DNA from: Oscillospiraceae bacterium
GTDB lineage: Bacteria; Bacillota; Clostridia; Oscillospirales; Ruminococcaceae
Assembly: GCA_045631325.1 (NCBI GenBank)
Contig: JAZQUO010000060.1
Span: forward strand, 10,274-74,273
Length of the DNA: 64,000 nucleotides
Direction: 5' to 3'
A program made the position numbers and the translations under genes. The notes under the pieces were generated by a model. The model made no database searches and was not told the origin of the DNA. It saw only the letters and a list, made by a program, of their open reading frames with translations. Shown here in pieces: positions 3,230 to 24,744 of this stretch (positions are counted from its first letter, which is position 1; every line of letters starts with the position of its first letter).

Positions 3230-4507
3230 ATGGATTTAAATAAATTCAGGCCCAAGGCGAACAAAGAGCCGGAAAAGCTTGAAACTTATATGATTGCGGC
3301 GGATAACCCTGTCGGTCATTCCCAGCTTCGTCCGATTTTCAAACGAAAAAGGACAAGGGAAGTTCTCACGAGGGAACAGGTTGCCGCAATCAAGAAAGGA
3401 CGCAAGCTTCTTTGGAAGGAAATGAAATCCCAGGGAATGCGGAGGATCGATTTTGAGGTCACCGCAACCAATATGGGGCTTTATTTCGACAGAAACCGGT
3501 TTTTATGGCCGTTTTTCCTTTGGCTTATCCGCGACAACACCGTCCTTAAAGTTCTTGTAACAACGGCGGTTATCACAACGGCGGTCACCGTTTCGGTTCC
3601 GGTTATCGAATATCTTCAGGAATTTGTTGACCGATATATCGAACAGATCGTCGAAAGAATCGTTCAGGAAGAAGTTGAAAAGGAAGTCGACCGTTTCACA
3701 ATAAGCCTTTCGGACGAAATGCTCAATTCCGGTTTCAGTTTAAGCGAGGATTTCACCTTTGAAAACGCGACAACAAACCTTGTTGCGGCTTCGGTCGAAG
3801 GCGTTCCCTGTATTTCGATACGCGATATTCCCCTTGACGTAAACGATTACGAAGGAAGATATCCGGACGAATCGTTCTTCGCATACACCTTCTATTGCCG
3901 TTACGAAAGCACCGTTTCCGAAGCCATTGACTATACCTGGTCGGTAAATATCACAAGGGAAGACGAGGTTGTTGTCGAAGACCCGGAAACCCTTGAACAG
4001 AAACATTATTTTGTTTCCGACGCGATCTGGGTTATGGTTTTTGAGGACAACAAAATGATGTTCTTCGCAAAAGTCGGCGAGGACGGCGAAATTGAAGCGC
4101 TTCCGGCGCAGGATATCACCGACCGCGGTTATGAAAACGGACCGCTTATCGAACATTCAAAATTGCCGGAAGAACAGTATGAAATCATTAAGGAAGGAAA
4201 TTATTTCGACTATTACAGAGTAAAGCCGATGAATTACGTTTCCGAAACGGTTGTTGCAACCGGCCTTATGGAAGGCGTTCTTCCTTTTGATATAAACCTT
4301 CACAACCCGGAAGCTCCTTACGACCCGGAAAACCCCAACGGAATCCATAAATACACCGTTGTAATCTGGCTTGAAGGGGACGACCCGGAATGCACCGACG
4401 CACTCATCGGCGGAAGCATCGGAATGAACTTCAAAATCCAGTTCCTTGACGAAGTCACCGAAGAGGAAGAAGGAGAAGAAGAAAATTCCGGCGAGGAAGG
4501 CGCTTAA
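3230..4507 (+). CDS. membrane protein with cytoplasmic basic N-terminus, internal TM region and extracellular domain sharing the C-terminal motif of the TasA-like paralogs
   Basis: TM region is FLWPFFLWLIRDNTVLKVLVTTAVITTAVTVSVPVI. The C-terminus YTVVIWLEGDDPECTDALIGGSIGMNFKIQF matches LWLEGQDSEC..NIQF (7308 gene) and IWLEGQDIDC..NIEL (13055 gene). A 4-nt gap separates it from the upstream gene. Confidence 0.6.
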   Translation: MDLNKFRPKANKEPEKLETYMIAADNPVGHSQLRPIFKRKRTREVLTREQVAAIKKGRKLLWKEMKSQGMRRIDFEVTATNMGLYFDRNRFLWPFFLWLIRDNTVLKVLVTTAVITTAVTVSVPVIEYLQEFVDRYIEQIVERIVQEEVEKEVDRFTISLSDEMLNSGFSLSEDFTFENATTNLVAASVEGVPCISIRDIPLDVNDYEGRYPDESFFAYTFYCRYESTVSEAIDYTWSVNITREDEVVVEDPETLEQKHYFVSDAIWVMVFEDNKMMFFAKVGEDGEIEALPAQDITDRGYENGPLIEHSKLPEEQYEIIKEGNYFDYYRVKPMNYVSETVVATGLMEGVLPFDINLHNPEAPYDPENPNGIHKYTVVIWLEGDDPECTDALIGGSIGMNFKIQFLDEVTEEEEGEEENSGEEGA

Positions 4508-4860
4508 ATTATAATTTGATGGGATTTAAAAGAAAACCCTCCGGGTTGACTGAAATCCCTCATCCGTCTTTTTCGCGGAAAACCGCGAAAAATCCACCTT
4601 CCCCTCTGGGAAGGCTTGAAGTTTGTATATGCTTTCCACTTTTGCTTTAAGTCGACAAAAGCAAAGGAATGGATTTCATAGAACTCCGGCGGGAGTTTAA
4701 ACACAGCAAAATCTTTTTAAGCTGTTTTTTTAAAAATTGCAGAAGCCGCAAAAATTTTTGCAATTTCAAATTGGGGTAATGAAAAAGCGGATTTTTTAAA
4801 GCAGATGTTTATTTTACGAAAAGAACAGCGGCGAAAAGAAAAAATTTATTTTTGAAAGGA

Positions 4861-7119
4861 ATGAAAAAAGACATGGTAAGTAAATCTCATGCAAAGCGTC
4901 GCCAGGATATTAAGACCAAACTTATGGCCGCAATTGCGATGCTTCTTGTATCTTCCATCATGATGGTATCTTCCACCTATGCATGGTTCACCCTGTCTAC
5001 TGCACCCGAGGTAACCGGTATCTCCACTCAGGTTGGCGCTAACGGTAACCTTGAAATGGCATTGCTTCCTGCAGATGCTATCACCGGTGGCAGCGCAAAA
5101 GACCCTAACTTCGGAATCACTTCCGGTTCCGGCGACAGCGGGCTTGCCGATGACCTCAGAAACAAAACCTGGGGCAACCTTGTTGACGTAAGCAACAACA
5201 CCTTCTACGGTCTGGATAAAATTTCCCTTTATCCTGCCGCGCTTAACGTAACGAGCGGAACTCTTGCAGCATCTATGCTCAGAACCCCCGAATACGGTTC
5301 CGACGGCCGTGTTGCAGGCCTTGCCGCAAATACCGTAACCGGTATTTATAACAACGGAGCAAACGGATTCCCCCAGGACTCCGACGCATGGGGCGTTCGT
5401 GCAGTTGGTGTTTCCTCCGCAATGACTCCCCGTCAGCTTGCATACCGCAACGCAATTTCTGCGGCAAACACTGCAATGTCCACAGCAAAATCCCTTGCAA
5501 GTTCTTCTCTTAACCTTAACGGTTCCACCCTTGCAAACATTGCGGTAACTCATGCAACTAATGATGCTGCACTTCATACTGCAGGGGAAGTTACTTCCCT
5601 TGGAAATATTGTAACAAGCCTTACCGGTACAGCAGAAGGCGTTGACGGTATTATCGAATACATCGAAAGCGCATATAAGAACTATGTTCTTGCATGGGTC
5701 GCTTCCAACGCAAACTCCGAAATCAACGATGAACAGTTCACTCTTGTTCAGGCATGGATCGAAGCAAACGATATTTACACCATCGCAGGCAGCACCACTG
5801 TTGATCTCGGCGCCGGAAATACCGTTACCCTTACTGTTCCGGATGCAGTAAAAACTCCTATTAATGCTCTTGCAACAACCAAAACCAACGTTACTTCCGC
5901 AAGCAATATGCTCAGCAACCTTGCTGGCGATGATTCCGCTGGTTATCCTTGGAGCACCAAGGAAACCGGTAAATATGGCATCGGCGACGTTCTTCACATT
6001 CTTGCAGAAACCAGCGCAATGAAAGTTAACGGAATTGAAGTTTCCAAAGTTACAGACGACGCAAGCGTCAACCAGCTTATGAAAGATGTTTCCGGCGGTA
6101 AAGGCGTTACTGTAACAATGGCAACCGGCGGCGGCGTTTATGCCGATATCGCAGACCATTGCGGCGATTACAAAGCAGCCATCACCATGAACCTTGTTTA
6201 CGGAAACCTTGAATTCGAAGGTTTGTCCGCAAATATGGCAACCGCTTCCACTATTACCCCCAGCTATCTTTCCCGTATGGGCAGCCAGTTCGGCAGCGGC
6301 GACGGCAAGTTTGATGCTCCTTCCGGCGGCGGCGCAGGTTCCGATATGCCTATCACCGAATATTACGGATATGTAATCGACCTTGCTTTCCGTACCAACG
6401 CAGCAGAATCCAACCTTCTTCTCCAGACCGAAGCAGTAAACCGCATTTATGATGAAAACGGAAGCGAGGAAACTCTTGGCCACGGTTCCACCATGACCTT
6501 CACTTCCACCACCCCCGACTTCACCGCAGAACAGCTTGCAGGTCTTATGGAAGCAATCCGCGTTGTATTCTTCGACCCGACCAACAACAACGTTTATGCT
6601 TACGCAAAACTTGATATGGAGCAAGGCAAATATACCGTAACCGGCGGTAACACTATCACTGCAAAACTCTATATCTATGAGACCACTGCAGAAAGCTATA
6701 ATCTTGTTCCGGCAGATACCGCATTGGTTGAAGGCACCGATTATTACACCAAAAACGGAGACGGTTCTTATGTAAAAGCAACCGTAACTCTTCCTGCAAC
6801 TGCACCCGCAGATACTTATTACACCAAGACCGAAGCAAGCGAAAACCTTCTTAACGGAACTGGTGAACAGCAGGTAATCACTGGTCTTAACCAGAATACC
6901 GCAAAAGCTGTTTCCGTTCTTGTATATCTTGACGGTGAAAACATCGAAAACGCAGACGTTGCAGCAACCGCAGCAACTTCCATGACCGGTACCATGAACC
7001 TTCAGTTCGCTTCTTCCGCAAACCTTGTTCCTATGAACTATGCACCCCTTATGAACCAGGGCGGAACCGCAACCAATCCTGACGATCCTAACAAAGAGCA
7101 GGGCGGCGAAAACGGCTGA
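4861..7119 (+). CDS. TasA/camelysin-like secreted protein with SipW-type signal peptide; candidate major fibre subunit
   Basis: N-terminus is KRRQDIKTKLMAAIAMLLVSSIMMVSSTYAWFTLSTAPEVTGISTQVGANGNLEMAL (compare TasA/camelysin GGTYAYFSD...GTLDL). C-terminal VYLDGENIEN...MNLQFASS is shared with the 19321 gene. The composition is Ala/Thr/Gly/Asn-rich. A strong hairpin follows. The start could also be TTG 4852 or ATG 4873. Confidence 0.7.
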   Translation: MKKDMVSKSHAKRRQDIKTKLMAAIAMLLVSSIMMVSSTYAWFTLSTAPEVTGISTQVGANGNLEMALLPADAITGGSAKDPNFGITSGSGDSGLADDLRNKTWGNLVDVSNNTFYGLDKISLYPAALNVTSGTLAASMLRTPEYGSDGRVAGLAANTVTGIYNNGANGFPQDSDAWGVRAVGVSSAMTPRQLAYRNAISAANTAMSTAKSLASSSLNLNGSTLANIAVTHATNDAALHTAGEVTSLGNIVTSLTGTAEGVDGIIEYIESAYKNYVLAWVASNANSEINDEQFTLVQAWIEANDIYTIAGSTTVDLGAGNTVTLTVPDAVKTPINALATTKTNVTSASNMLSNLAGDDSAGYPWSTKETGKYGIGDVLHILAETSAMKVNGIEVSKVTDDASVNQLMKDVSGGKGVTVTMATGGGVYADIADHCGDYKAAITMNLVYGNLEFEGLSANMATASTITPSYLSRMGSQFGSGDGKFDAPSGGGAGSDMPITEYYGYVIDLAFRTNAAESNLLLQTEAVNRIYDENGSEETLGHGSTMTFTSTTPDFTAEQLAGLMEAIRVVFFDPTNNNVYAYAKLDMEQGKYTVTGGNTITAKLYIYETTAESYNLVPADTALVEGTDYYTKNGDGSYVKATVTLPATAPADTYYTKTEASENLLNGTGEQQVITGLNQNTAKAVSVLVYLDGENIENADVAATAATSMTGTMNLQFASSANLVPMNYAPLMNQGGTATNPDDPNKEQGGENG

Positions 7120-7170
7120 TTTTCAAGCTAAGTCTTACATAAGACAAATTTTTTCAAGCACACCCCAAAA

Positions 7171-7210
7171 GGTTCATACCCGCTCCGGAAATCCGGAGCG
7201 GGTATGAACC
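7171..7210 (+). terminator. perfect 18-bp stem-loop after the candidate major subunit gene (partial terminator or mRNA stabiliser)
   Basis: ggttcatacccgctccgg-aaat-ccggagcgggtatgaacc. No clean T-run follows on the plus strand. Confidence 0.6.
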
Positions 7211-7307
7211 GAAAAGCTTGGTTGGCGGCTGCCTTTTGCGGTTTTAAAAAACGGAAAACGCAAAAGGGAACCTTCAACTTGTTGAAGAATTTTTGAAGAA
7301 AGGAGAA

Positions 7308-8414: not shown

Positions 8415-8486
8415 AATGCAGTAATTGCAATTGCAGGTATTGCTTTTATATATAATGTTTTTTAAAAAGAAGGGAGCGACCCACAA

Positions 8487-9410
8487 ATGAAAAACGAGAA
8501 AGAAAAGATCGCGGCACCTATTGCACAGGAAGGCGAAGGAGAAATTGTCGTCGAAGAAGAAAGCAAAGGCAAAAAAATTCTGAACACAGTCGTTAACGTT
8601 GTTCTTGTAATTGCCATTGCGCTTGCGGCAGTTTGCACCTATGCATCCTATGTTTCAACTTCCGGCAACGGCGTTCCGAACATTTTCGGTATCCGAATCT
8701 TCTCGATTCAGACCGAATCTATGTACCCGACCCTTTTGCCCGGCGACCTTATTTTCGACACCGGCGTTAAAGACCCCGGCGAACTTCGCAGAGATGATAT
8801 CATCACCTATTGGACCGTAATCAACGGCGAGCGTGTTCTCAACACCCATAGAGTTTACGAAATCTATGACGGCGGCGGCTATCTTATCTTCTCCACCAAA
8901 GGTGATAACAACACTTCTGCCGACCCTCTTACGGTTCATGAATCCGAAGTTGTGGGTAAATATTCCTTCCGTGTTCCCGGAGTCGGCAAAGTTTTTGACT
9001 ATCTCCAGACAAGCACCGGCTTCCTTATTGTAATTGTAATTCCGGTTTTCCTTTTCTTCCTTTTCCATCTTGTTCAGTTCTTCAGAGTTCTCTTTGAATA
9101 TCAGAACGTCAAGAACAGAATCAAATTCGAACAGGAACGCGGAAGAACCGAAGACCTTATCGATGCGGAACAGAAACGACAGAGCGAAGAACAGGCCGCC
9201 GCAAGGGCGAAAATTGAAGCTGAACTTCGCGAAAGACTGAAAGCGGAAATTATGGCTTCCATGGCGGCGCAGGCTGCTGCGGCCGCGGCACCGGCGGAAG
9301 AACCCTCTCCTGAAGCTGTTCAGGAAGAGGTTGTTGCCGAAGAAGTTCCGGAAGAACCCGCAGAAGAAACCGCAGAAGAAGAAAAAGCGGAGGAAACAGC
9401 CGAAGTCTGA
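8487..9410 (+). CDS. SipW-type (archaeal/ER-type) signal peptidase I with long C-terminal tail
   Basis: Catalytic-type blocks are IQTESMYPTLLPGDLI, NTHRVYEI and STKGDNN. There is an N-terminal TM, a second TM (FLIVIVIPVFLFFLFHLVQFF), then a tail of about 110 aa that is coiled-coil and A/E/P-rich. Confidence 0.8.
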   Translation: MKNEKEKIAAPIAQEGEGEIVVEEESKGKKILNTVVNVVLVIAIALAAVCTYASYVSTSGNGVPNIFGIRIFSIQTESMYPTLLPGDLIFDTGVKDPGELRRDDIITYWTVINGERVLNTHRVYEIYDGGGYLIFSTKGDNNTSADPLTVHESEVVGKYSFRVPGVGKVFDYLQTSTGFLIVIVIPVFLFFLFHLVQFFRVLFEYQNVKNRIKFEQERGRTEDLIDAEQKRQSEEQAAARAKIEAELRERLKAEIMASMAAQAAAAAAPAEEPSPEAVQEEVVAEEVPEEPAEETAEEEKAEETAEV

Positions 9411-9438
9411 TTTTCCTCCGGGAAAATAGGTGTAAAGC

Positions 9439-11007
9439 ATGAACAATTTCTTTAACTATTTCAAAGAGGATATCGGGCAGGTTTTTGATGCCTTTGTTGA
9501 AATATTGAGCGCAATTTTCAACTTCATCAACTATCTGTTCAACTTCCCGATGAGAATGAACATAATCAAGGAGCACAGCGCCGATTTCAGCACCACCGAC
9601 TGGGTGATGCTGCTTATTGCAAACATAATGATAATCGCCCTTTGCTGTCTTATTATCTATTTCATCGGAAAACTTATCCGCAACATTTTCTTCGGCGGAA
9701 TTTCGAAGAAAGAATATGAAAGAATGGCCGGCCAGGTCCGCACCCTTCAAAGGGATCTTATGCGTTCAAACTATGAAAAGGATAAGATCCTTGCAATGAC
9801 CATGGGTAACCCGGAAATTCCTCCGGAAGAGGAAGAAAAAACCGAAGAAAACGGGGAAGAAGGGGAAGAATTTGCTGTTTCTTCCAACAGAAACACCTTC
9901 GATTCTCCTTGCGTCGATCCTTCGGACAGCCGTTTCTTCCGTCTTACCAGCGTTGATAACTATTACAAAACCGAATATATAAAACCTGAATACGACAACG
10001 AGATCACTCTTGAGGAAATTTGCGAAAGATTCAGAAAATTCGCCGCTTCCCAGCTTAAACTTTATTACGATCTCGACATGATGAGATACTTCCTTGCTTC
10101 GATGGGAACTTCGAGAATCATAATTCTCCAGGGTATTTCCGGTACCGGTAAAACCTCGCTCCCTTATGCGTTCGGTAAATTTGTTCAGAAAGATACAACC
10201 GTTGTTTCCGTCCAGCCTTCCTGGCGTGAACGTACCGAGCTTTACGGTTATTTCAACGAATTTACAAAACGCTATGCCGAAACGGAATTCCTTCAGGCAA
10301 TTTATGAATGCAACTATTACCGCGACCCGCATATTGTAATCCTTGACGAGATGAACATCGCCCGTGTTGAGTATTATTTTGCGGAAATGCTTTCAATTCT
10401 CGAAATGCCCCTTCAGGAAGAATGGAAAGTTGACGTTGTAACAGCTGTATGGGACAACGACCCCTGCCTTATCGAAGGCGGTAAGATCCAGATCACCAAC
10501 AACGTCTGGATCGTCGGCACCATCAACAACGACGACTCGACTTTCGCCGTCGCGGATAAAGTTTACGACCGTGCAATCCCGATAGACCTTGACAGCAGGG
10601 CTGATCCCTTTGAATGTGAGATAACCGATCCGGTTTATATTTCCACCGACCACCTCAACGAACTTTTCGACGAAGCGAAGGCTGCGCATCCTGTTTCCCA
10701 GGAAATTATGGATAAGCTTGAACTTGTTAATACATATCTTATAAAGAACTTCCGTCTTGCATTCGGTAACCGAATCATGAAACAGATAGGCGACTTTGTT
10801 CCCTGCTTCATCGGCTGCGGCGGTACGGAAATTCAGGCAATCGACTTTATTGTTGCAAAAAAAGTTCTCCGTAAGTTTGAATCCCTCAGCCTTGGTTTCA
10901 TGAAGGATGAACTTACAAAGTTCAGCGCATACCTTGACAAGGTTTTCGGCAAAAACCAGATGAAAATCTGCAAGGAATATATTGAACAGCTTAAAAAGAA
11001 CAACTGA
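9439..11007 (+). CDS. membrane-anchored McrB-family AAA+ NTPase
   Basis: TM is WVMLLIANIMIIALCCLIIYFIG. Walker A is GISGTGKTS. VSVQPSWRERTELYGYF resembles McrB VQFHPSYSYEDF. Walker B block is IVILDEMNIARVEYYFAEMLSILE. WIVGTINNDDSTFAVADKVYDRA resembles McrB IGTMNTADRS. Confidence 0.72.
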   Translation: MNNFFNYFKEDIGQVFDAFVEILSAIFNFINYLFNFPMRMNIIKEHSADFSTTDWVMLLIANIMIIALCCLIIYFIGKLIRNIFFGGISKKEYERMAGQVRTLQRDLMRSNYEKDKILAMTMGNPEIPPEEEEKTEENGEEGEEFAVSSNRNTFDSPCVDPSDSRFFRLTSVDNYYKTEYIKPEYDNEITLEEICERFRKFAASQLKLYYDLDMMRYFLASMGTSRIIILQGISGTGKTSLPYAFGKFVQKDTTVVSVQPSWRERTELYGYFNEFTKRYAETEFLQAIYECNYYRDPHIVILDEMNIARVEYYFAEMLSILEMPLQEEWKVDVVTAVWDNDPCLIEGGKIQITNNVWIVGTINNDDSTFAVADKVYDRAIPIDLDSRADPFECEITDPVYISTDHLNELFDEAKAAHPVSQEIMDKLELVNTYLIKNFRLAFGNRIMKQIGDFVPCFIGCGGTEIQAIDFIVAKKVLRKFESLSLGFMKDELTKFSAYLDKVFGKNQMKICKEYIEQLKKNN

Positions 11008-14371: not shown

Positions 14372-14376
14372 ATATT

Positions 14377-15135: not shown

Positions 15136-17194
15136 TAATTCTGCGGAAAGTTCCGTTTCGCCGGAACTTATTAAGGCGCAGAAAAATATCCTGATGAAGG
15201 CTGCCCTTGCTTTTCTTACAATTGTTCTTACCATTGTAATTCTTTTTGCGATGACTTCGGCATGGTACACGAACATTGTTCACACAAGCGGACTTGTTTT
15301 TGAGGTTGAATCCTGGGGATTTGACGGAGAAATCACGGTGGAACAGGGACCGATTCTTGCAGGCCCCGGTGACAGCGGAATTATCGGACTTTCGATGGAC
15401 GGAACAGCAGGAGAAATTCTTGACGTAAGTATCGGCGTTTCTAAAGAAGCTATGCTGAATTCCATTGGAATAAGCGGACAGGAATCGACGGCGGACACAG
15501 ATGCCATGAAGAAAAGATTTTTCTTCTATGTTGACAAACCGGGAATCAAAAACGGCGAGCAGGTTGACAGATTCTATATAAATAACACAGAAGATTATAC
15601 TTATACCGTTTTCAGCGAAGGTTCCATCAGAATTTCTGAAGATTTTTCGAACGTTCCGGAACTTAAATGGCAATGGGTTTATGACGTTCTCGGATATTAC
15701 GTAAGAGCGAATGATGACGGAAACGGAACATTTATTGTGCAGGAATATCTTCGTCCGATTGAATATGATTTTGACAGTGTGACTTTCACCGAAGTTGCGA
15801 CAGTTGTTGAAGCGGACGGAGAGGAAATAACAATTCCTAAAAAAGTTATTGAAACCATTGATGGAGTTCCGACGGAAGTTTTTCTTGAGGAATTTTCCAA
15901 AAACGACGGTTATGCCGGTGAAATAATTGTTATTCCCGAAGCAGGAGAAACTGCGACTGACACTGTTGAGACTGCCGACGGAACATATTACAAAGTTGCG
16001 GAAGGAATTTACGCATATCTTTGCGATTATCAGGAAATTGAGGACGCAACTGTGTTTGATACCGTTCTCGGGAAAATGGCGGGAAATAAAAGTGAAATGA
16101 CGCAGGATGAACTCGAAGCATTGCGGTTTCCGGCGACAGTAAATGTTTCTGTTCAGAACAGAACAGAAGCGGAAAGCGTTGAGGTGACAACGCTTAATAC
16201 TGATATTATTTCCGGAAACAGCGGAAAAGTTATTAAACTTGCAAACGACGTTGCTTTAACGGAATCTCTCGTAATTCCGGAAAACGCGAATGTTGAAATA
16301 GATCTTAACGGAAAATCAATCAGTTTTTCCGGAATTGAAGCCAAGGGAAATGCGATTGAAGTTCCGGAGGGAAGTTCTCTTCTTATGCTCAACGGCAAGG
16401 TTGAGAATGAATATTCCGCAAAAAAAACGGGAAGAGGAATTCTTGCTTCCGGTGCGGAAGTCACACTCAGCGGAGTTGAAATCAACGGTTTTGATTACGG
16501 ACTTCGTGTAACCGATAATGCCGCAGGAAATAAAACGGATTCTGTGATTCGTCTTTATAACTGCAAAACAGACGCCGGAACCTGCGGAGTTTACATCCTT
16601 GGAAATGGAGAAGCTTCGGAACAGAAAACCCAGCTTATTATTGAAAAATCCGAACTTAAAGCAGAGGGATTTGTAATCTGCGGAGGCGGAAACCCGGACA
16701 GCAGGGGAACCGATATCCGGATTATAGGAAGCACTCTTGAATCTATCGGAGAGTATAGCGTTGGTATTTATCAGCCGCAGAAAGACGGCGAAACCGTTAT
16801 TTATAACAGTACGATTACAGCCCGCACGGGAATTGCCCTTAAAGCAGGTGTTGTCGAAATTATCGATTCGCATATTTACGGAAAAGGTCCTTATGGAGAC
16901 CCCGGATATGCGGTAAGCGGTTCGAAAGATACGGGCGACGCGGTTTATATTGAAGCAAACTACGGACATCCAATCAGCCTTATCATAAAAGGGGAATCCG
17001 AACTTAAAGCAAGTGATCCCAGGAGCATGGCTCTTCGTGTTTATGAAGAAGATGCACCGAACGTAACAGTTGAAATCATAAGCGGAATTTTCAGTTCGGA
17101 AGTTTTGGAAAACTGGGTTGCGGACGGTTCCGTTTTGAGCAGCGACAAAAAAACTGTAAGCGTTTCTGCATCCGCGCAGGAAGAAACCGAATAA
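15077..17194 (+). CDS. SipW-type signal peptide protein with C-terminal right-handed beta-helix-like repeats (candidate adhesin or enzyme subunit)
   Basis: N-terminus is AALAFLTIVLTIVILFAMTSAWYTNIVHTSGLVFEV. The C-terminal ~330 aa has beta-helix-type repeats (NGKSISFSG.., GILASGAEVTLSGVEINGFDYGLRV.., IRIIGSTLES.., IYNSTITARTGIAL..). GAGGAG RBS. It overlaps the upstream gene by 59 nt. Confidence 0.6.
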   Translation: MLKKFNWDPEKIPKILKLNNNSAESSVSPELIKAQKNILMKAALAFLTIVLTIVILFAMTSAWYTNIVHTSGLVFEVESWGFDGEITVEQGPILAGPGDSGIIGLSMDGTAGEILDVSIGVSKEAMLNSIGISGQESTADTDAMKKRFFFYVDKPGIKNGEQVDRFYINNTEDYTYTVFSEGSIRISEDFSNVPELKWQWVYDVLGYYVRANDDGNGTFIVQEYLRPIEYDFDSVTFTEVATVVEADGEEITIPKKVIETIDGVPTEVFLEEFSKNDGYAGEIIVIPEAGETATDTVETADGTYYKVAEGIYAYLCDYQEIEDATVFDTVLGKMAGNKSEMTQDELEALRFPATVNVSVQNRTEAESVEVTTLNTDIISGNSGKVIKLANDVALTESLVIPENANVEIDLNGKSISFSGIEAKGNAIEVPEGSSLLMLNGKVENEYSAKKTGRGILASGAEVTLSGVEINGFDYGLRVTDNAAGNKTDSVIRLYNCKTDAGTCGVYILGNGEASEQKTQLIIEKSELKAEGFVICGGGNPDSRGTDIRIIGSTLESIGEYSVGIYQPQKDGETVIYNSTITARTGIALKAGVVEIIDSHIYGKGPYGDPGYAVSGSKDTGDAVYIEANYGHPISLIIKGESELKASDPRSMALRVYEEDAPNVTVEIISGIFSSEVLENWVADGSVLSSDKKTVSVSASAQEETE

Positions 17195-17230
17195 ATATTT
17201 TTAAATTTTTTGAAAGGGGGAGCGCCGGTT

Positions 17231-17842
17231 TTGGAACAGAAAAAAAACAGAAGTTTCGTCTGGCATTTTGCCGCTTTGGCGCTTCTTCTTTGCATTGCGT
17301 TTTTTGTGATTTCCGTATCTCCCGCTTTTGCGAGATACCGCGAGGGATTTGAAAATAAAATTATATTTGAAGTCCGGGAACCGGAACATATTTGCTTCGG
17401 AAGTTTTAATGAAGAGAAATTTGTTCCATTTACGGACAGCGGGGATATCAAATGGAAAATTTCTGGGGATATGGCGACGATTACCCTTACTGTTGCAAAC
17501 GGAACTTCCGGAACGGATTTTTTTTCGAAAGACCAGAAAATAAATATCCAGCTTGCGGCAGGACCGGAATTTAAGGATAAGAATGTTACATTGAGTTTTC
17601 CGGAAGGAAGTTCTCAAAAAAATATTTTGGGTACAGCATCGGAAATTAAGGACGATTCAACTTTTGATAAATCTTACGGAACGGGAGTTCTGTTCAGCTT
17701 TACGGAAAACGAAGAGGAATTTTCTTATATTTTAAAGGGCGGAAAATTTTCTTATTTTACGTTCATGATATCTTTTGATACAAGCGGATTAAATGAAACA
17801 AGCCTTCTTCAGCCGCATGTTGTGGCGGAAGTTATTCAATAA
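17231..17842 (+). CDS. small secreted or anchored protein of the fibre locus (ARY-motif class)
   Basis: N-terminus is FAALALLLCIAFFVISVSPAFARYREGFENKIIFEVREPE. GGGGGAG RBS. The start is TTG 17231 or TTG 17210. Confidence 0.5.
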   Translation: MEQKKNRSFVWHFAALALLLCIAFFVISVSPAFARYREGFENKIIFEVREPEHICFGSFNEEKFVPFTDSGDIKWKISGDMATITLTVANGTSGTDFFSKDQKINIQLAAGPEFKDKNVTLSFPEGSSQKNILGTASEIKDDSTFDKSYGTGVLFSFTENEEEFSYILKGGKFSYFTFMISFDTSGLNETSLLQPHVVAEVIQ

Positions 17843-17878: not shown

Positions 17879-19312
17879 TTGAAAAACAACAGAATAAAAG
17901 CATGCGTTCTCCTTTCGGCAGCTCTTTTTGCCGGGACTCTCGGAATTTCTGTCGGGGAGACCCAGGCAAGATATAACAACAGGATTTTTTGCAGTACGGT
18001 TCTTGAAATTCCGGAACCGGAAATTGAAAGCGAAGTTCTTTTTAAAAACGGCGAAACGCCGGTTACGGTTTATCTTGGAAAAGCCGAAGAAGGAAAAACT
18101 TTTTCGATTCCCCTTAAATCTTCCGGAGCGGGAACGAAAGAAAAAATAAGCTGGAATATTAAATCCGAGGGAACAGGAACCGAGGATGTTGAGGTGGAAT
18201 TCATAACCGGAGAAAAAGTTCTTGTTTCCGGGGAAGAAATCGAAATCGGAAACGAAACCGAAACGGCGGTTGAAATGAAAATAATTCCTCCTTCCGGCGA
18301 ACACGGCGAAATTACGACAACAGTTGAAGTTGCGGTAGGAGAAGAACTTTCCGGCAAATTTAAAGTTGTTTTTTCGGAAGCAACCGTTTCCGGTGAAGTT
18401 TCCGGAGAATCCGGAACAACCGATATTCCTCCGGAAGGCGGAAATATGGAAACTCCTCCGGCTGAAGAACCGGAAAACGGCGGTTCGGAAAATTCTTCCG
18501 GAAACACCGAAGGAAGCGCACCCACCGTTAACGCAGGAACAAATGCGGAGATAAAAACAATTCCGTATTTTGATTCGGATGGAAAACTTCCGGTTGCGAT
18601 GAATCTTCCGGGCGGAATCCGAACAGTTAAAATCGGAATCAGCGAAGAAGGAAGCTTTAAAAATCTTCCGGCGGGAACAAAAATAAGTCTTGATAACGGA
18701 GAAAGTTACTATATGGTTTCCGAAGGGGCGGATGCAGAATTCCCGGTTTCGGAATTTTACGTGCTTGAATCCGGATATGCGCTTTTGCTTGATTTTGAAA
18801 AAGCGGAAATTGATACCGCAAAAGAACTTGTTATTGCGATTGAAACAACATCAACATCGGGAGCAACGACAAATTATAGCGTTTCATCAACTCCCGTTGA
18901 TTTTGAAAGCGGAAAAATGAAAATTGCTTCTTCTGTCGAGCAGCTTGTTGACGCGGAGGAAAGCGGTAAACCCTGTATTCTTTCTCAAGGCGATTGGATT
19001 GAAACCGAGTTTATGAAAGAATGGATCAGCAACGGAATAACTTACAGCTGTGACGTGATGATTCTTTCCGAGTTTATTGATGGGAAACCTGTTTTTTACG
19101 ATACGGGAGAGGATTTTGACAAAGGAACTTACACCGTTAACGAAGAGGAAGGTTCCTGCGTTCGTATTTTAAAGCCGGGGAAATTTGTTCCCGCGGCGGG
19201 AACTTACGAAATGATTATTCGTTGGGAATTTGAAGGGATTTGTTTTTATAACGAACGAACCACCTTTTTTATAAATTATCTTTCCGACATATATTCAACC
19301 TTTGAAAGTTAG
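17879..19312 (+). CDS. secreted protein of the fibre locus (ARY-motif class) with Ig-like or acidic regions
   Basis: N-terminus is ACVLLSAALFAGTLGISVGETQARYNNRIFCSTVLEIPEPE, which shares ARY..IF..(V/L)E(V/I)xEPE with the 17231 protein. GGAAAGGAG RBS. Confidence 0.55.
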   Translation: MKNNRIKACVLLSAALFAGTLGISVGETQARYNNRIFCSTVLEIPEPEIESEVLFKNGETPVTVYLGKAEEGKTFSIPLKSSGAGTKEKISWNIKSEGTGTEDVEVEFITGEKVLVSGEEIEIGNETETAVEMKIIPPSGEHGEITTTVEVAVGEELSGKFKVVFSEATVSGEVSGESGTTDIPPEGGNMETPPAEEPENGGSENSSGNTEGSAPTVNAGTNAEIKTIPYFDSDGKLPVAMNLPGGIRTVKIGISEEGSFKNLPAGTKISLDNGESYYMVSEGADAEFPVSEFYVLESGYALLLDFEKAEIDTAKELVIAIETTSTSGATTNYSVSSTPVDFESGKMKIASSVEQLVDAEESGKPCILSQGDWIETEFMKEWISNGITYSCDVMILSEFIDGKPVFYDTGEDFDKGTYTVNEEEGSCVRILKPGKFVPAAGTYEMIIRWEFEGICFYNERTTFFINYLSDIYSTFES

Positions 19313-19320
19313 GAGGTGCC

Positions 19321-22300
19321 TTGAAGTTGACAGAAACACAGAGACGAATTGAGGCATATCAAAAGGCATTACCCGGAATAAGGGAGAAAGTTACGGCGGT
19401 GGCAATGCTGCTTGCGCTTTCTGTTATTATGCTTACTTCCGCATCTTTTGCCTGGCTTACGATTTCGTATGCGCCGGAAGTTTCGGAAATCAGCACGACC
19501 GTTGCGGCAAACGGTAACCTGGAAATTGCATTGGCAACAGGAAACGGATTGCTTCCGCCCGGAGAATCGCAGATCGGAGATTCGGCGGCAGCGGAGAATC
19601 AAACCATTGTTAATGCGAATAACACATGGGGTAACCTTATCAACCTGAACGATGCTGCATACGGTTTGGAAAACCTTGTTTTGAGACCGGCACAGCTCAA
19701 CAGGTCCGACCTCCTGGGAAGCCCTTTGTACGGCGCTCTTTACACTACTGACGGTCGTATTGAAAAACTGAGCAGTGACTTTGCATATACGTCATGGGTT
19801 CCGCCGCAAGATCCCCGTCCGGGTTATTTCGGTCTCAGTTCCGGCGTTGGCGTAAGGGCGATTTCTTCCACAAAGGTAACCGCAGAAGGCGCATGGGTCG
19901 TTATAAACCAGCTTAAGGGCGACGCAGAATCTGCCAATGCTGCTGCGGGTGACAAATATATCGAGCTCACCAAAAACCAGGGATATATGGAATCTCTTTC
20001 GTATATCATGGGCGTATTCATGACGGACAGAATGAACCCGGATTCAGGTGATGAATATAACAACCAGAGCATAGATACAACCCACCTTGGAAACCTTGTC
20101 AAGATGTATAATGCTTTTGAGGATGTTTTTGAACTTGAAGCACAGGCTCTTGTAAAAATGCTGAATCTTCAGCTTTATTTGCTGAATGGCGGACACACGG
20201 ATCAATATACTGAATTTACGGTAGAGACTATGATGGCCAACGACCAGGCATCTTTGAACAGACTCGGCCTTAAAATCACAGATTTCAATACTTTCAAAAA
20301 TGACTACAACCTCATTAAAAACGACAGAGCTGTTCTTGAAGCAATATCCGGGGCAGGAAATGTAAAATGGCTCGGAGATCCTAATGTTGCAGGAGGACGT
20401 TCACTTAAACAGGTTATAGGTTCTCTTGTAAACCTTTCGACCTGTACCGTAAACGGAGATCCTATCAGTTCCATAGGTGCGTCAAAAGCTCTTGAACTGA
20501 ACAACAAGAAGAAAGTTCCGGCAATTATTACAAACGGAGTAATTTACAACTTCGAGCGCCGCGTTGGTGTTTATATGGAGGTTGGTAAAGAATATAACAG
20601 CGGAAATGGTCTTAAAATTATAGCAAAAGGTACGCGCTATGGTATGTCTATGAACGGTACCATTTATGCATATATTACTACTTCCGCTACACCGCCCAGC
20701 CTTTTCTTTACTGATCTTGAAAATTCCATTGACCTTGCAGGTGAATTTGAAGGCGAAATCGTTGCGCAGGATACATACGGAATGGCTGTGGACTTCTGGG
20801 TACGCACAAACACCCCAAACAGCTACCTTGTTCTTGAAGGCAACGTTCTTACAACCAGCGAACAGGTCGTTGCAACCGGCGAAGATGCAGACGGAAATAC
20901 GGTCGAAATCTATACCGTTACAAGAGAAGAAACTGTGACAAATGAGGAAACAAACGAAACCGAAAAAGTTATTGTACCGATAGATGTTTACAAGAAAGAA
21001 GTGGACGGAACAGAAAAATGGTATTATGCAACCGGTCACAGGGAGTTTACTCTTAATGATGGAGAAACACCGACCAAAAAGATGGATACCATTACAACCG
21101 TTATCGGATTTGAGGGAGAAAACCGCGTTTGGGACGATTCCATGCTTTCAGTCGATGCAACAACTCAGGGCGGAGGAAGCTGTTATGTTTACTATGCGGA
21201 TACTCCGGAAGACCAGGCAAAATCCCTTAAACTTCTGAACGCTTTCAAAGTAGCTTTTGTAGGCGCTGACGGTAAACTTCTTGCCGAAGCGGAGATGGAT
21301 ACTGCAAAGTTTTTTGCGGAAAGCGGACGTGTTACTGTACCGTTGGTGCTTTCTCCGAGCGCAAGTGTAAGCCTTGGAACCGATGATGCCGGAAATGAAA
21401 TTTTCGGTATTACCAAGCTTGAAAAAAATCAGGCAACAAGAATAACCGCAATAGTTTATCTTGACGGTACCAAACTTACAAACGAAGAAGTTCTTGCGGC
21501 AGCAGATATTCAGGGACAGCTTAATATCCAGTTCGGTTCAAGCGGCGATATGGTTCCGATTGACAATGAGGAACTTGAACAGAAAGAAAGAACAGTAACG
21601 GCAACTGTTGACAACACAAGTTTCGACTATGACACGCATGTGGGTGATATGAAATCCACTGTTACAGTTACTGTTATGGGAGAACAGCCGAAAAACGTAA
21701 CTGCATTTTTCCTTCGCCAGATCAACGCGACCCAGGGTTCCCGTGAAGAGAAAATGACTTTTACAAAGAATGCAAACGGCGATTGGACAGCGGATTACAT
21801 ATTTACTTCTCCCGGTAAATATATTTTGAGAAGCGTTAAACTTGACGGCGTCGATTATGACCTTGCTTCTCCGCCGCAGGTTGTTATTACCGGTTTCAGA
21901 GTTGAAAACCTTACCTGCGCAGCTGCAGACGAGGACAGAAATATAAAAGTTCTTTCTACGGAAAACTCTTATACGACCGACTTTACAATTAAATTCGCTG
22001 CTGACAGCGAGGAAAAAATGCCTAAATCCGTCCAGGGACGTTTTACCAAAGAGGACGGAACGATGGTAAATATCAACTTCAAGTATGACCCGACAACCCA
22101 TATCTGGAGCGGTTCCGGCACTTTTGCCGCGTCGGGCGACTATACAATGCAGTACGTTGTTCTTGACGGAAGACATGTTGAACTTGAAGAGGGAATGAGA
22201 TTTACCGCAGACATCACTCTTGGTATTAAAGTTGCGGTTTATACAACAAGCCCCACTTCTTTCAAGTTCGACCTTGATGAAATGAAACCGAACGAAAGAC

Positions 22301-23916
22301 TTCTTGGAATGCAGGTTCGTATTATGGACAACGCGGGCGACGCGATGACCGCAATGACCGATATAGACCTTTACTATAAGATGGAAGGTTCCGCAAGAAC
22401 CATGCATACCGAACTTGAATGGGATTCGAGCATTGGATATTATACGGGTAATCTTACAACACTCGGTGAAGGACGCTGGAACTTCGAAAGACTTGAAATG
22501 GGTACTAACGTTATTACTTCCGCAATAACTTCGCCTGTTTTCACGATTTTCTCTTCCAATATGCCGAAGCTTTATAATGATCCTTACGTTACCAGTCCTT
22601 ATCAGTTTGTTCCCGACAGGGACGCAAAGATGAGCATTCGTCTTGTAAATGCAAACGGCGCGGAAGTTAATGCGATTTTTGTTAACACAAAAACCAACCT
22701 TGAATATACGGTTCCGTATACCAACAGCGTTTCTTCCGAAACGGAGGAAGGAATTGTTGAATACACCGAGTTCATGTTTGCGCTTCCGAAAGATTCGGTT
22801 CAGGATGGCATCTGGCGTATGGACCAGATTCTTGTAACGAACTGTATCGGCGATGACGGAAGCTATATTCCCGCAGGTTCCAGCAGACCTTATGTTATTG
22901 ACCTTGAAGATAAAAACTACACAACGAAAGTTGTTGAAACGGTAAGTGTTTCTATTCCCGCGGGTCAGAATATCGTAAGAGGTGCAAATGACGGTGACGG
23001 AAACGGAACGATTGAAAGCGGAGAAATCAGCGGAGCATTTATGCAGAGCCAGAGTATCTCCGGATTTAAAATCAAGGTTCTGGACTTTGAAAATGTGCCT
23101 ATTAAAAATGCCGACGCTGTTACAATTCCTTTCAGTTACCATGATGACAGTGAAAGCTACGGCGGATACACCATAAACAACGCCGGCGATATCACAGACG
23201 ACGATTTCACGCTTTCTTTCACATGGAATGAGGGAGAAGGCTGTTATGTCAGCGGAGAAGTAAGCCGTCCTTATGCGGGTACTTATACTGCGGAATCGAT
23301 AGCGGTTCGTTTCAGCACAAAGACATTCACATTCTCCGGAGAAACAGCTCCGGCAAATATGCCGAACGTTGCAATCTATTCTGTGAAACCGACGGTCGAA
23401 ATTGCTTCTATGGATCCAAACCCAGAAAATGGCCAATATACCACAATAAACGCAGATGCAGAAGAAATGAAAGTTAGTACGACTGTAGAAGGAAGAACAA
23501 TTAAAATTTTCCCTGAAATTGTATTGACAAAAGATGGAAGGGGATGCACTACAGGAACATCACTGACAAGACAAGCTATGGTAGAATTAGAATTGATTGG
23601 TCTTGGAAGCGGCAGCAAGGCAACATTGAAATTTACCTCAAATTACTCCAATGGCACGGTTTATATGTATGCTGTTAATGCAAACAACGGAAAAGGAAGC
23701 CAGACCGGAAATTATGAATGGACAAACGGTACGAATCTTGTTACAAGAATCATCGGTAACTATTTGACTGCAGGCTGCAGCGAGATGTCTCAGATAAAAA
23801 ATGCAGGAACGCTAACATCTGACAGCTTTATTACCATTGAATACACGGTCAGCGGCACTACCACAACCATTACTTTCACTGTTGCTGTGGAACCTATCAC
23901 AATTATTCAGGAATAA
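19321..23916 (+). CDS. giant TasA/camelysin-like paralog (1531 aa) with SipW-type signal peptide; candidate tip or adhesin subunit
   Basis: N-terminus LLALSVIMLTSASFAWLTISYAPEVSEISTTVAANGNLEIAL closely parallels the 4861 protein. An internal TAIVYLDGTKLTNEE..QLNIQFGSS block (around 21450..21540) matches the C-terminus of the 4861 protein and is followed by ~790 aa of extra domains. AGGAGG RBS with TTG start. Confidence 0.7.
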   Translation: MKLTETQRRIEAYQKALPGIREKVTAVAMLLALSVIMLTSASFAWLTISYAPEVSEISTTVAANGNLEIALATGNGLLPPGESQIGDSAAAENQTIVNANNTWGNLINLNDAAYGLENLVLRPAQLNRSDLLGSPLYGALYTTDGRIEKLSSDFAYTSWVPPQDPRPGYFGLSSGVGVRAISSTKVTAEGAWVVINQLKGDAESANAAAGDKYIELTKNQGYMESLSYIMGVFMTDRMNPDSGDEYNNQSIDTTHLGNLVKMYNAFEDVFELEAQALVKMLNLQLYLLNGGHTDQYTEFTVETMMANDQASLNRLGLKITDFNTFKNDYNLIKNDRAVLEAISGAGNVKWLGDPNVAGGRSLKQVIGSLVNLSTCTVNGDPISSIGASKALELNNKKKVPAIITNGVIYNFERRVGVYMEVGKEYNSGNGLKIIAKGTRYGMSMNGTIYAYITTSATPPSLFFTDLENSIDLAGEFEGEIVAQDTYGMAVDFWVRTNTPNSYLVLEGNVLTTSEQVVATGEDADGNTVEIYTVTREETVTNEETNETEKVIVPIDVYKKEVDGTEKWYYATGHREFTLNDGETPTKKMDTITTVIGFEGENRVWDDSMLSVDATTQGGGSCYVYYADTPEDQAKSLKLLNAFKVAFVGADGKLLAEAEMDTAKFFAESGRVTVPLVLSPSASVSLGTDDAGNEIFGITKLEKNQATRITAIVYLDGTKLTNEEVLAAADIQGQLNIQFGSSGDMVPIDNEELEQKERTVTATVDNTSFDYDTHVGDMKSTVTVTVMGEQPKNVTAFFLRQINATQGSREEKMTFTKNANGDWTADYIFTSPGKYILRSVKLDGVDYDLASPPQVVITGFRVENLTCAAADEDRNIKVLSTENSYTTDFTIKFAADSEEKMPKSVQGRFTKEDGTMVNINFKYDPTTHIWSGSGTFAASGDYTMQYVVLDGRHVELEEGMRFTADITLGIKVAVYTTSPTSFKFDLDEMKPNERLLGMQVRIMDNAGDAMTAMTDIDLYYKMEGSARTMHTELEWDSSIGYYTGNLTTLGEGRWNFERLEMGTNVITSAITSPVFTIFSSNMPKLYNDPYVTSPYQFVPDRDAKMSIRLVNANGAEVNAIFVNTKTNLEYTVPYTNSVSSETEEGIVEYTEFMFALPKDSVQDGIWRMDQILVTNCIGDDGSYIPAGSSRPYVIDLEDKNYTTKVVETVSVSIPAGQNIVRGANDGDGNGTIESGEISGAFMQSQSISGFKIKVLDFENVPIKNADAVTIPFSYHDDSESYGGYTINNAGDITDDDFTLSFTWNEGEGCYVSGEVSRPYAGTYTAESIAVRFSTKTFTFSGETAPANMPNVAIYSVKPTVEIASMDPNPENGQYTTINADAEEMKVSTTVEGRTIKIFPEIVLTKDGRGCTTGTSLTRQAMVELELIGLGSGSKATLKFTSNYSNGTVYMYAVNANNGKGSQTGNYEWTNGTNLVTRIIGNYLTAGCSEMSQIKNAGTLTSDSFITIEYTVSGTTTTITFTVAVEPITIIQE

Positions 23917-23925
23917 AAAATATAG

Positions 23926-23960
23926 CGGTCTTCCGGTTTCTTTCAAAAACCGGAAGACCG
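23926..23960 (+). terminator. 14-bp stem-loop after the 1531-aa gene
   Basis: cggtcttccggttt-ctttcaa-aaaccggaagaccg. No strong T-run follows. Confidence 0.5.
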
Positions 23961-24027
23961 GCAACCACATTGGCAAAAATTTATTGCGGATTTATTTTCG
24001 AATAAGTTTTTTGCAGGAGGGTTTGAT

Positions 24028-24744
24028 ATGAATTTAATTATCAAAGAAATTGCAGATCTGGGTTTGTCGAAAACTTTTTACGACGTATTTTTTGCGTTAG
24101 GTTTTGTTTCGGTTTTTCTGTTTATCTTCTATCTTGGAAGAAAAATGGACGTAAAACCATTGAAAATAGCGGAAATCGTTCTGACGGTTTATCCTTTGTC
24201 AGTACTGTGGATGTTTGTAATGTACTGGATTGAAACCGGCTATTTCGGTGGGAACAACATTGTAAGAGTCTTTGTTTACGTTCCGGTGATTGCATATCCG
24301 ATGGCAAAAACTTTTGAGCTGCCTTATAAAAAAGTTTTGAGCATGGTTGCTCTTGGTCCTGCGGCGGTACACGCAATAAGCCATTACGGATGCATATTTG
24401 AAGGATGCTGCTGCGGATATATACAGGATTGGGGAATTTACAGCCCGATAACCGGGGCACTGCATTTTCCGTCACAGCCGATAGAAGCCACAGCTGCCTT
24501 GCTTATTGTTTTTTATTTGCTTTACAGAGCAAATAAACGCGATTATGTTCCCGACGGACTGGAATATCCGTTGATGCTTACTTTGTTTGGTTCAAGCAGA
24601 TTTATCTTTGAGTTTTTGAGAGATAACGAGAAGATATGGCTTGGATGTTCTTCTCTTGCATTCCATGCACTGTTCATGTTTGTTGTGGGAATCGTCTGGA
24701 TTATTGTTGCGAAAAGAAAATCAAAGGACTTGAAAATCTTTTGA
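24028..24744 (+). CDS. divergent prolipoprotein diacylglyceryl transferase (Lgt)-like membrane protein
   Basis: The protein is polytopic. HYGCIFEGCCCGY resembles Lgt GRLGCFxxGCCxG, FPSQPIEATAALLIVFYLLY resembles P-x-Q-L-Y-E, and SSRFIFEFLRDNE resembles RFxIEFxR. AGGAGG RBS. Confidence 0.5.
   Translation: MNLIIKEIADLGLSKTFYDVFFALGFVSVFLFIFYLGRKMDVKPLKIAEIVLTVYPLSVLWMFVMYWIETGYFGGNNIVRVFVYVPVIAYPMAKTFELPYKKVLSMVALGPAAVHAISHYGCIFEGCCCGYIQDWGIYSPITGALHFPSQPIEATAALLIVFYLLYRANKRDYVPDGLEYPLMLTLFGSSRFIFEFLRDNEKIWLGCSSLAFHALFMFVVGIVWIIVAKRKSKDLKIF

Follow-up and report, generated by a model that had tools for sequence, protein, structure and literature searches.

What does a monoderm gut anaerobe build with a single run of genes that encodes related exported proteins, two signal peptidases and an McrB-type GTPase? 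The question is raised by a 64,000-nucleotide (nt) stretch of an Oscillospiraceae genome (GenBank assembly GCA_045631325.1, contig JAZQUO010000060.1, positions 10,274 to 74,273), hereafter called the window. Based on an open reading frame (ORF) map and translations of the 64-kb window, the genes from 1741 to 33129 form an unbroken run on the plus strand, and the part from 1741 to 26638, about 25 kb with about 15-17 genes, is conserved as a unit. We propose, with a probability of roughly 55%, that this unit is a system for a peptidase-processed surface fibre or fibre-like adhesive assembly, in which the protein encoded at 4861-7119 would be the major subunit. An earlier interpretation drawn from the letters and translations of this DNA (the sequence-only reading) had described a TasA-like fibre locus at 3230-24744 with all of its ORFs on the plus strand. 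The ORF map agrees on the strand, but the extent was too small, as the conserved unit reaches further on both sides. Genes and their proteins are named below by the first nucleotide of the gene, and all features lie on the plus strand.

Six or seven of the locus proteins carried an N-terminal signal-anchor helix. In five of them (4861, 7308, 13055, 15077 and 19321), the translations and a transmembrane (TM) scan revealed a basic stretch and a single hydrophobic helix, followed by (S/T)-x-(A/T)↓W-(F/Y/M/L), where the arrow marks the predicted cut. The five N-termini read SSTYAWFTLS, TASYTWFSIS, MSSYAWMVLS, MTSAWYTNIV and SASFAWLTIS, as quoted in the sequence-only reading. The core [YFS][AT]W[FMLY] occurred nine times in a six-frame scan of the 64 kb, and five of these occurrences are exactly the five N-termini. 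Additionally, ortholog alignments indicated that the cleavage-type motif is conserved within each family. A second signal type, ending in A-R-Y, is common to 17210 and 17879, which matched each other over the N-terminal 48 amino acids (aa) at an hhalign E-value of 1.4e-7.

The relationships among the exported proteins were resolved by profile-profile comparison (hhalign) with profiles built from about 60-80 orthologs per gene in related loci. The proteins 4861 and 19321 matched over 616 columns (E 7.8e-79), and 7308 and 13055 were full-length paralogs (E 5.7e-34). These two pairs were joined through their N-terminal 55-150 residues (E 1e-12 to 1e-14), with an E-value of 3e-12 between 4861 and 7308 from blastp within the window and profile-profile comparison. 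Moreover, the C-terminal domain of 3230 (residues 281-409) resembled residues 225-357 of 7308 (E 1.1e-7, probability 94%). Five paralogous substrates had been claimed earlier; four of them (4861, 19321, 7308 and 13055) are demonstrable paralogs, and 15077 is not, because it matches the other substrates only in the signal region (hhalign probability ≤56%). By these comparisons of sequence, the exported set comprises four paralogs of a new beta-rich family, the anchored paralog 3230, the separate protein 15077 and two proteins of the ARY type. The previously listed APEV..IST.V.ANGNLE block and the late motifs WLEG.D..C and VYLDG...N(L/I)QF were all present in the translations. A single Cys is invariant in W-L-E-G-x-D-x-(D/E)-C (C336 of 7308, C417 of 13055 and C389 of 3230), and the 4861/19321 branch has VYLDG without Cys; this residue could provide a metal site or an inter-subunit link.

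The candidate major subunit, 4861 (4861-7119, or from an alternative TTG start at 4852), is a protein of 752 aa with a signal-anchor helix and the site SSTYA↓WF, whose N-terminal segment is invariant and whose beta core bears a large helical insert. More than 2284 homologs were found, all of them unannotated. Its most conserved stretch, T39-E65, is near invariant and stands directly after the predicted cut. The giant paralog 19321 (19321-23916, 1531 aa) consists of a full 4861-like module (residues 1-756) and a C-terminal extension of ~775 aa, matched nothing in Pfam or the PDB, and is a candidate adhesin or tip subunit. The minimal core paralog 7308 (7293/7308-8414, 368 aa, 722 homologs) has a TASYT↓WF site, an all-beta body and the motif WLEGQDSEC, and is a candidate minor or adaptor subunit, while 13055 (13055-14371, 438 aa, 1304 homologs) is a further core paralog with the site MSSYA↓WM and the motif WLEGQDIDC. 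The membrane-anchored paralog 3230 (3230-4507) has a conserved basic cytoplasmic N-terminus, one TM helix (residues 108-126) and an ectodomain ending in WLEGDDPEC; it lacks the cleavage-type motif, has no Pfam or NCBIfam match, and is a candidate for the cell-side anchor or base.

The remaining exported proteins differ from this family. The protein 15077 (15077-17194) carries the signal AMTSA↓WY, and FAMTxAWYTN is conserved in 77 homologs. Its mature region is unrelated to the other substrates and without a Pfam or PDB match, and from its sequence looks like beta-helix-type repeats. Read from its first ATG, this ORF shares 59 nt with the end of the second peptidase gene, an overlap that a start at the internal Met at 15194 would avoid. 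The small protein 17210 (17210-17842) has an ..AFA↓RY site with the consensus VGxAYARY, and 17879 (17879-19312) is the second protein of the ARY signal type. Homologs of 17210 and 17879 were present in about 40 and in 17 related loci, respectively, at the blastp threshold used.

The subunit family extends far beyond this locus. A joint profile of 7308 and 13055, searched against 1.84 billion representative proteins, matched 4134 clusters (50% identity) at E≤1e-3, 957 at E≤1e-10 and 232 at E≤1e-30. When ten divergent members were scanned with Pfam, a domain was found in only one, P0494 (1132 aa), in which the N-terminal module of the family is fused to DUF285/BspA-type LRR_5 repeats. PDB sequence and profile searches with 4861, the 7308 family, 15077, 19321 and 11035, the McrC-like protein described below, gave nothing meaningful.

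Two endoplasmic reticulum (ER)/archaeal-type signal peptidases I lie inside the array, at 8487-9410 and 14377-15135, with TIGR02228 scores of 91.9 and 78.3 bits against a cutoff of 51.85. The sequence-only reading had recognized both, and the motifs that it cited, SM(Y/E)PT, THRV and TKGD(N/A)N, are all present in the translations. The catalytic Ser and His were invariant, as S78/H121 in 71 homologs of 8487 and S59/H102 in 81 homologs of 14377. With the Bacillus SipW equivalog model NF046067 the two enzymes scored 100.7 and 80.4 bits, below its cutoff of 190 bits, and by these scores they share the enzyme type of Bacillus SipW and are not its orthologs. Both peptidases end in a long, highly charged and coiled-coil-like tail after the second TM helix, ~110 aa in 8487 (residues 197-307) and ~73 aa in 14377 (residues 180-252). 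Across the 71 and 81 orthologs, the tails had median lengths of 89 and 74 aa and consisted to 55-67% of E/K/R/Q/A/D. The tail of Bacillus SipW is much shorter. Given the usual SipW topology, the tails would be cytoplasmic, and the coiled coils of the GTPase and of the McrC-like protein might contact them.

The presence of dedicated ER/archaeal-type peptidases together with their exported substrates resembles the Bacillus tapA-sipW-tasA and B. cereus sipW-tasA-calY operons. The predicted site is also similar: a small residue at -1, Trp at +1 and an aromatic or hydrophobic residue at +2 here, compared with T-x-A↓(A/Y)-F in TasA and CalY. A passage of PMC10269814 attributes the need for SipW instead of the general peptidase at the TasA/CalY site to the aromatic residue at P2'. 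As in TasA, where it is the donor strand, a conserved N-terminal segment follows the cut, and 3230 may be compared with TapA as an anchoring or accessory partner. Where these operons have three genes, the present unit has about 15-17, among them those for two peptidases and for a GTPase-McrC pair, and its subunits reach 1531 aa; its signal class differs, and its mature domains show no similarity to those of Bacillus by sequence or fold search.

Membership in the TasA/camelysin family is unsupported, because family models and hhalign were negative and Foldseek gave no significant match. No locus protein matched Peptidase_M73, the TasA model NF046066 or the BsaA model TIGR04090 at E≤0.01, and none matched the RER_14450 family. 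The N-termini had earlier been likened to the SipW-dependent signal. None of seven N-termini matched the corresponding model TIGR04088 at E≤10, though those of TasA and CalY scored 38-54 bits in the same scan (cutoff 19) and TasA reached 513.8 bits on NF046066. A comparison of the 7308 family with TasA in hhalign gave a probability of 0.2%. With working controls and negative scans, we rejected membership in TasA, camelysin, BsaA and TIGR04088. What survives of the TasA-like interpretation is an analogy, carried by the peptidases and the similar site logic: by these searches the locus is not a TasA/camelysin system, but plausibly works like one.

Structure models were obtained with AlphaFold2 (AF2) from deep alignments for 4861 (87.5 for pLDDT, the predicted local distance difference test; 0.74 for pTM, the predicted template modelling score) and 7308 (pLDDT 84.5, pTM 0.80). 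In the 4861 model, residues 36-60 were the only internal stretch that AF2 did not place, with pLDDT below 50. This segment is conserved and yet unplaced in the monomer, and therefore behaves as expected for a segment that works between subunits. Foldseek searches of the PDB with both models gave nothing at E≤0.001 and TasA fell outside both top-50 lists; for 7308, BFVD likewise gave nothing at E≤0.001. The weak matches were of the beta-sandwich/jelly-roll kind (picornavirus VP1, F17G/PapG lectins and laminin LN). A divergent but true member of the TasA/camelysin/BsaA matrix fibres, with a classical SipW-cognate signal, could account for the SipW-type peptidases in the operon, for a small residue at -1 with aromatic residues at +1/+2, and for these non-significant jelly-roll-type matches, which include donor-strand archaeal filaments. 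We consider it very improbable, however, in view of the empty family scans beside strong TasA and CalY controls, the hhalign result and the position of TasA outside both Foldseek lists.

The same data bear on the idea that the unit serves the dedicated export and processing of surface proteins that stay unpolymerised, for example adhesins or a coat, present as monomers or as a membrane-bound complex without any fibre. The export and processing evidence fits this equally well, no filament subunit was matched significantly, and large extensions and leucine-rich-repeat (LRR) partners would suit plain adhesins. Such proteins would, however, hardly explain the near-invariant segment after the cut that stays unplaced in the monomer model, nor a small paralog set with expression signals of the major-subunit type (see below) and one anchored paralog without the signal. 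On balance, we regard this explanation as rather unlikely, and prefer a polymerising, fibre-like assembly.

Several filament systems offer partial precedents for such an assembly. In Clostridium perfringens, the sipW-bsaABC-bsaRS operon encodes paralogous exported subunits that polymerise into matrix (PMC7395162, PMC11580942). Like it, the present locus is clostridial, linked to SipW-type peptidases and provided with several paralogous exported subunits; unlike it, the locus has no TIGR04090 match and contains a degenerate HD-GYP/EAL gene and no two-component regulator. The Bsa operon, in turn, has no McrBC-like pair. Archaeal filaments (Pyrobaculum AbpA, 7UEG, and Sulfolobus threads, 7PNB) have beta-rich subunits that signal peptidase I releases and that are linked through a donor strand at the N-terminus (PMC9245690). 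AbpA and the Sulfolobus thread were the only filament proteins in the Foldseek lists, and these matches were not significant (E 0.2-0.24, TM-scores 0.21-0.39). The subunits found here are 2 to 8 times larger than the archaeal ones, and the AbpA and thread loci have no dedicated peptidase (PMC9245690) and no GTPase. Type IV pili and sortase-built pili were also considered: the translations, TM scan and family scans revealed no G↓F-x-x-x-E leader, prepilin peptidase, PilB/PilC, LPXTG motif or sortase. A type IV pilin-like nature of the N-terminal helix was rejected since prepilin motif, prepilin peptidase and ATPase were lacking.

Between the two peptidase genes lies a pair that the sequence-only reading had called two nucleoside triphosphatases (NTPases). 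One of them is: 9439 (9439-11007) is a membrane-anchored McrB-family GTPase with weak AAA_5 and McrB matches and an E-value of 2e-4 to PDB McrB 6hz4. It consists of a conserved N-terminus, a TM helix (residues 58-76), a short conserved coil, an acidic linker and an AAA+ domain. Its Walker A (GISGTGKTS), Walker B (ILDEMN) and McrB signature region (GTINNDDS) were invariant in 72 homologs; the NNDD of the signature can be read as NxD followed by D, or as NxxD. Its partner 11035 (11035-12987) is not an NTPase, but an McrC-like protein with an N-terminal DUF2357 domain (residues 39-173, 28.2 bits against a cutoff of 23.3) and an E/K/R-rich coiled-coil region of ~300 aa. Residues 1-395 of this protein are conserved and the coil is variable. 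No nuclease domain was detected in it, and it had no other match in Pfam, NCBIfam or PDB-sequence searches.

In canonical McrBC, the N-terminal (DUF2357) domain of McrC plugs the McrB hexamer. The pair described here resembles that system in its AAA+ GTPase core with Walker A, Walker B and McrB signature region, and in the DUF2357 domain of the partner. Unlike canonical McrBC, it has a membrane anchor in place of the DNA-binding domain and resides in an export/surface-protein operon; neither the PD-(D/E)xK nuclease nor the DNA-binding domain was detected in Pfam, NCBIfam, PADLOC and PDB-sequence searches.

The architecture of the locus had been thought undescribed. In fact, the association was named CoCoPALM by Bell et al. 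(eLife 2024, PMC11090510), in one paragraph that deferred the analysis to 'a separate, forthcoming publication'; no such follow-up was found in full-text searches to mid-2026. The earlier claim is right only in part, and the published mention gives no anatomy. According to PMC11090510, CoCoPALM comprises CoCoNuT-like McrBC systems that form a large clade; there, McrB-like GTPases, fused to an FtsB-like TM/coiled-coil domain and with an NxD variant of the McrB signature, occur with coiled-coil McrC homologs and signal peptidases; the association of McrBC and signal peptidases was read there as linked to pilus assembly. The present locus matches the architecture of this class in its McrB-like GTPase with a TM helix and short coil, its DUF2357 protein with a coiled coil and its operonic signal peptidases, membership being judged from architecture only. 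The N-terminus of 9439 had no DivIC/FtsB Pfam match at E≤10 in HMMER. The account in PMC11090510 does not describe substrates, gene order, taxa or mechanism, and it makes no mention of the substrate family, of the genes for the HD-GYP/EAL, Lgt-like and LRR proteins, of the tails of the peptidases or of the leader RNA. Among these, the fold family of the substrates, the tails of both peptidases and the RNA motif of the leader are undescribed components.

A search with a 13055-family profile gave relatives in 106 species-representative genomes. Each of these is an uncultured gut metagenome-assembled genome (MAG) from ruminants or humans, and they are labelled Oscillospiraceae, Acutalibacteraceae, Faecousia, Vescimonas, Angelakisella and similar. 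For synteny, each ORF of 80 fetched loci was classified against the window proteins, and 51 of these loci had full flanks. The order 4861-7308-peptidase-GTPase-DUF2357-13055-peptidase-15077 was contiguous in 49 of the 51, with the peptidase genes flanking the GTPase/DUF2357 pair, and it persisted at protein identities as low as about 35-40%. Conservation as a unit, which the sequence-only reading had named among its checks, is thus borne out, with the array kept in about 80 species-level genomes. Insertion of a mobile defence island into a surface locus was ruled out because the GTPase pair holds a fixed position across about 80 species.

The McrBC ancestry nevertheless invites another explanation, namely that the unit is an anti-phage or inter-bacterial conflict system, with the GTPase-McrC pair as sensor or effector and the surface proteins as an accessory barrier, decoy or receptor mask. 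The GTPase domain strongly matched the PADLOC defence-candidate model PDC-M26A (E 1.2e-40), PMC11090510 sets CoCoPALM beside the CoCoNuT type IV restriction-like systems, and a prophage lies within the same 64-kb window. However, no nuclease or other effector domain was detected in the McrC-like protein, the GTPase bears a membrane anchor where a nucleic-acid-binding domain would be, most of the coding capacity is spent on exported structural protein, and the pair is fixed inside an ordered array, unlike a mobile defence island. We therefore consider a conflict system improbable, and return to the surface assembly.

The unit is bounded by the conserved HD-GYP/EAL gene upstream, and by the LRR gene and a canonical terminator downstream. 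Its first gene, 1741 (1741-3225), encodes a protein with HD_5 (5.6e-12) and EAL (7.7e-07) Pfam matches. In this family, H-Q replaces the H-D dyad and the DDFGTG-type EAL motif is missing; GFP is found here in place of the GYP of the family consensus. Because the degeneracy of both domains is kept across the family, the protein is probably a cyclic di-GMP (c-di-GMP) sensor/receptor or regulator and not a phosphodiesterase. It stood directly upstream of the 3230 homolog in all ten loci with enough flank, at a median gap of 3 nt (42 loci), and the genes further upstream varied from locus to locus. The last gene, 24770 (24770-26602), encodes a BspA-type LRR surface protein (LRR_5, 1.2e-58) with a signal peptide and a C-terminal TM anchor (TM helices 12-30 and 573-591), and followed the 19321 homolog in all 13 loci with enough flank. 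The fusion in P0494 points to a functional tie between the subunit family and this LRR protein. Between the two lies an Lgt-like membrane protein of the prolipoprotein diacylglyceryl transferase family (24028-24744, PF01790, 1.6e-11), found in 8 of the 13 loci (about 60%). The Lgt-like gene looks like a second copy, and no obvious lipobox was present among the locus proteins. A canonical bidirectional intrinsic terminator at 26604-26638, with a 16-bp stem between A and U runs, probably marks the 3' end of the unit; sub-threshold Rfam matches of the leader/terminator type span 26508-26696.

Further evidence comes from the RNA elements around the 4861 gene. The long gap noted in the sequence-only reading is real (4508-4851, or to 4860 with the ATG start), and it contains a leader element at 4670-4722, in which a 6-bp hairpin (NNYYCC-GGCG-GGRRNN) is followed by RAAACACGCAA. 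Its stem is supported by covariation, with 30 cells changed on both sides compared with 9.6 in shuffles and none of 500 shuffles as high; controls with a slid stem came out far lower. A covariance model of the leader (R1) gave 37 matches at E≤0.012 in 1.57 Mb of loci, all on the plus strand and all just upstream of 4861-type genes only (e.g., L010:1433-1485, L070:1615-1667, L077:591-643 and L077:2022-2074); one locus with two 4861-type genes had two copies. The leader could be a 5' mRNA stabiliser or a regulator binding site. Since Rfam gave no family at E≤1 in either 4508-4860 or 7120-7292, a c-di-GMP or other riboswitch in the leaders was ruled out. An A/T-rich TAnAT-like box lies immediately 5' of the leader hairpin. 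A second, more variable hairpin at 4624-4670, about 20-40 nt upstream of the leader motif, has in many loci the conserved loop GCACTCCG or GCACTTCG and in another subgroup CTCTAACCC; this hairpin may act as a promoter element or belong to a larger RNA.

The gap after the 4861 gene is also highly structured. The hairpin that had been reported in 7120-7292 is a perfect 18-bp stem-loop at 7171-7210 without a U-tract (minimum free energy -55 kcal/mol for 7120-7260, z -6.7 vs. shuffles), likely an attenuator or mRNA-stability element. In 67 loci, the gap after the 4861 homolog was the most structured of the core array, with a median of -38.5 kcal/mol per 100 nt, compared with -5 to -27 kcal/mol per 100 nt for the other gaps upstream of the 19321 homolog; the sequences of these gaps differ among loci, and all have GC-rich stems. 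Taken together, the leader, the downstream stem-loop and the conserved segment look, by analogy, like the differential-expression signals of a major pilus subunit gene. A second structured element at 7215-7275, between the 4861 and 7308 genes, has the shared sequence GG.GCTGCCCTTTTG...AAAAAACGGAAA... and recurs in the closer relatives L005, L006 and L010-L012. A 14-bp stem-loop without a U-tract follows the 19321 gene (23926-23960, z -6.5), and the equivalent gaps in relatives are strongly structured. Scans for sigma-70 promoters and simple terminators showed no enrichment over shuffles.

These observations can be arranged into a working model of the proposed fibre. The subunits would be exported by Sec and kept in the membrane by their signal-anchor helices, until the two peptidases cut after the small residue ahead of the invariant Trp. 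The segment thereby exposed (WFTLSxxPEVxGIxTxVGANGNLE in 4861) would bind the next subunit in line, probably serving as donor strand in the manner of TasA and the archaeal Abp filaments and threads. In such a fibre, 4861 would form the shaft, 7308 and 13055 would serve as minor or adaptor subunits, 19321, 15077 and the BspA-LRR protein would be adhesive parts, and 3230 would be the membrane anchor. The GTPase-McrC complex, at the cytoplasmic face and perhaps touching the charged peptidase tails through coiled coils, might gate or power processing or assembly, while the HD-GYP/EAL protein may couple expression or activity to c-di-GMP and the leader RNA may control expression. The sequence data show the export signals, the type of the peptidases, the paralogy, the intact GTPase motifs and the co-conservation, all of it much beyond what chance would give; the place of the cut, polymerisation, the part played by each subunit, coupling by coiled coils and the work of the GTPase belong to the model. 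In its fullest form, the proposal is a monoderm pilus-biogenesis pathway in which a membrane GTPase ring with a nuclease-less McrC-like plug is coupled by coiled coils to two peptidases, and GTP gates or drives subunit release and donor-strand polymerisation into an adhesive fibre under c-di-GMP and leader RNA control. This complete pathway is tentative, and we hold it to be possible rather than probable.

Several points weigh against a fibre. Polymerisation and donor-strand exchange are steps that we infer, and in Foldseek searches with the two models no fold match to TasA, AbpA, the thread subunits or any pilin was significant, the best filament matches being weak (Sulfolobus thread 7pnb, E 0.2, TM-score 0.39; AbpA 7ueg, E 0.24). 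Cleavage by the peptidases is only predicted, and the N-terminal helices could stay as anchors; likewise, the low pLDDT of residues 36-60 in 4861 could reflect a flexible linker. To our knowledge, no fibre of this kind needs an NTPase, and the role of the GTPase in assembly is therefore a guess. In addition, all carriers are uncultured MAGs, known from their genes alone.

The neighbourhood of the unit is less conserved. Just upstream, 804-1706 encodes a FIVAR-domain membrane protein that is also present upstream of the unit in the related loci L001-L004 and not generally conserved. Downstream, 26806-33129 encodes a surface protein of 2107 aa with a signal peptide, a C-terminal TM anchor and, near the C-terminus, a Cys-rich repeat region with paired CxxC. 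It had no Pfam or NCBIfam match, and no homolog was found in the fetched parts of the related loci, most of which end before the corresponding point. Strong terminator-like hairpins follow this gene at about 33716-33862. A prophage-like region at 45791-53301 (probably about 44-60 kb) includes a large terminase (45791-47128) and a P22-like portal (51745-53301), and is separated from the locus by genes for alpha-amylase, iron-containing alcohol dehydrogenase (Fe-ADH) and serine dehydratase; G+C falls to 0.33 at 58-60 kb.

The Oscillospiraceae and their relatives are abundant, mostly uncultured gut bacteria whose surface structures are essentially undescribed, and the locus is present in at least 80-106 species-level genomes of such bacteria. 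The superfamily to which its subunits belong, about 4100 clusters, has neither a Pfam family nor a relative in the PDB. Now that the genes, the boundaries, the cleavage and leader motifs and the relationships of the paralogs are mapped, the system can be tested directly. If the proposal is true, the motor of the McrBC restriction enzyme would have been taken over for a cell-envelope function, and if fibres form, they would represent an adhesive appendage of a new kind among Gram-positive bacteria, with relevance to colonisation of the gut.

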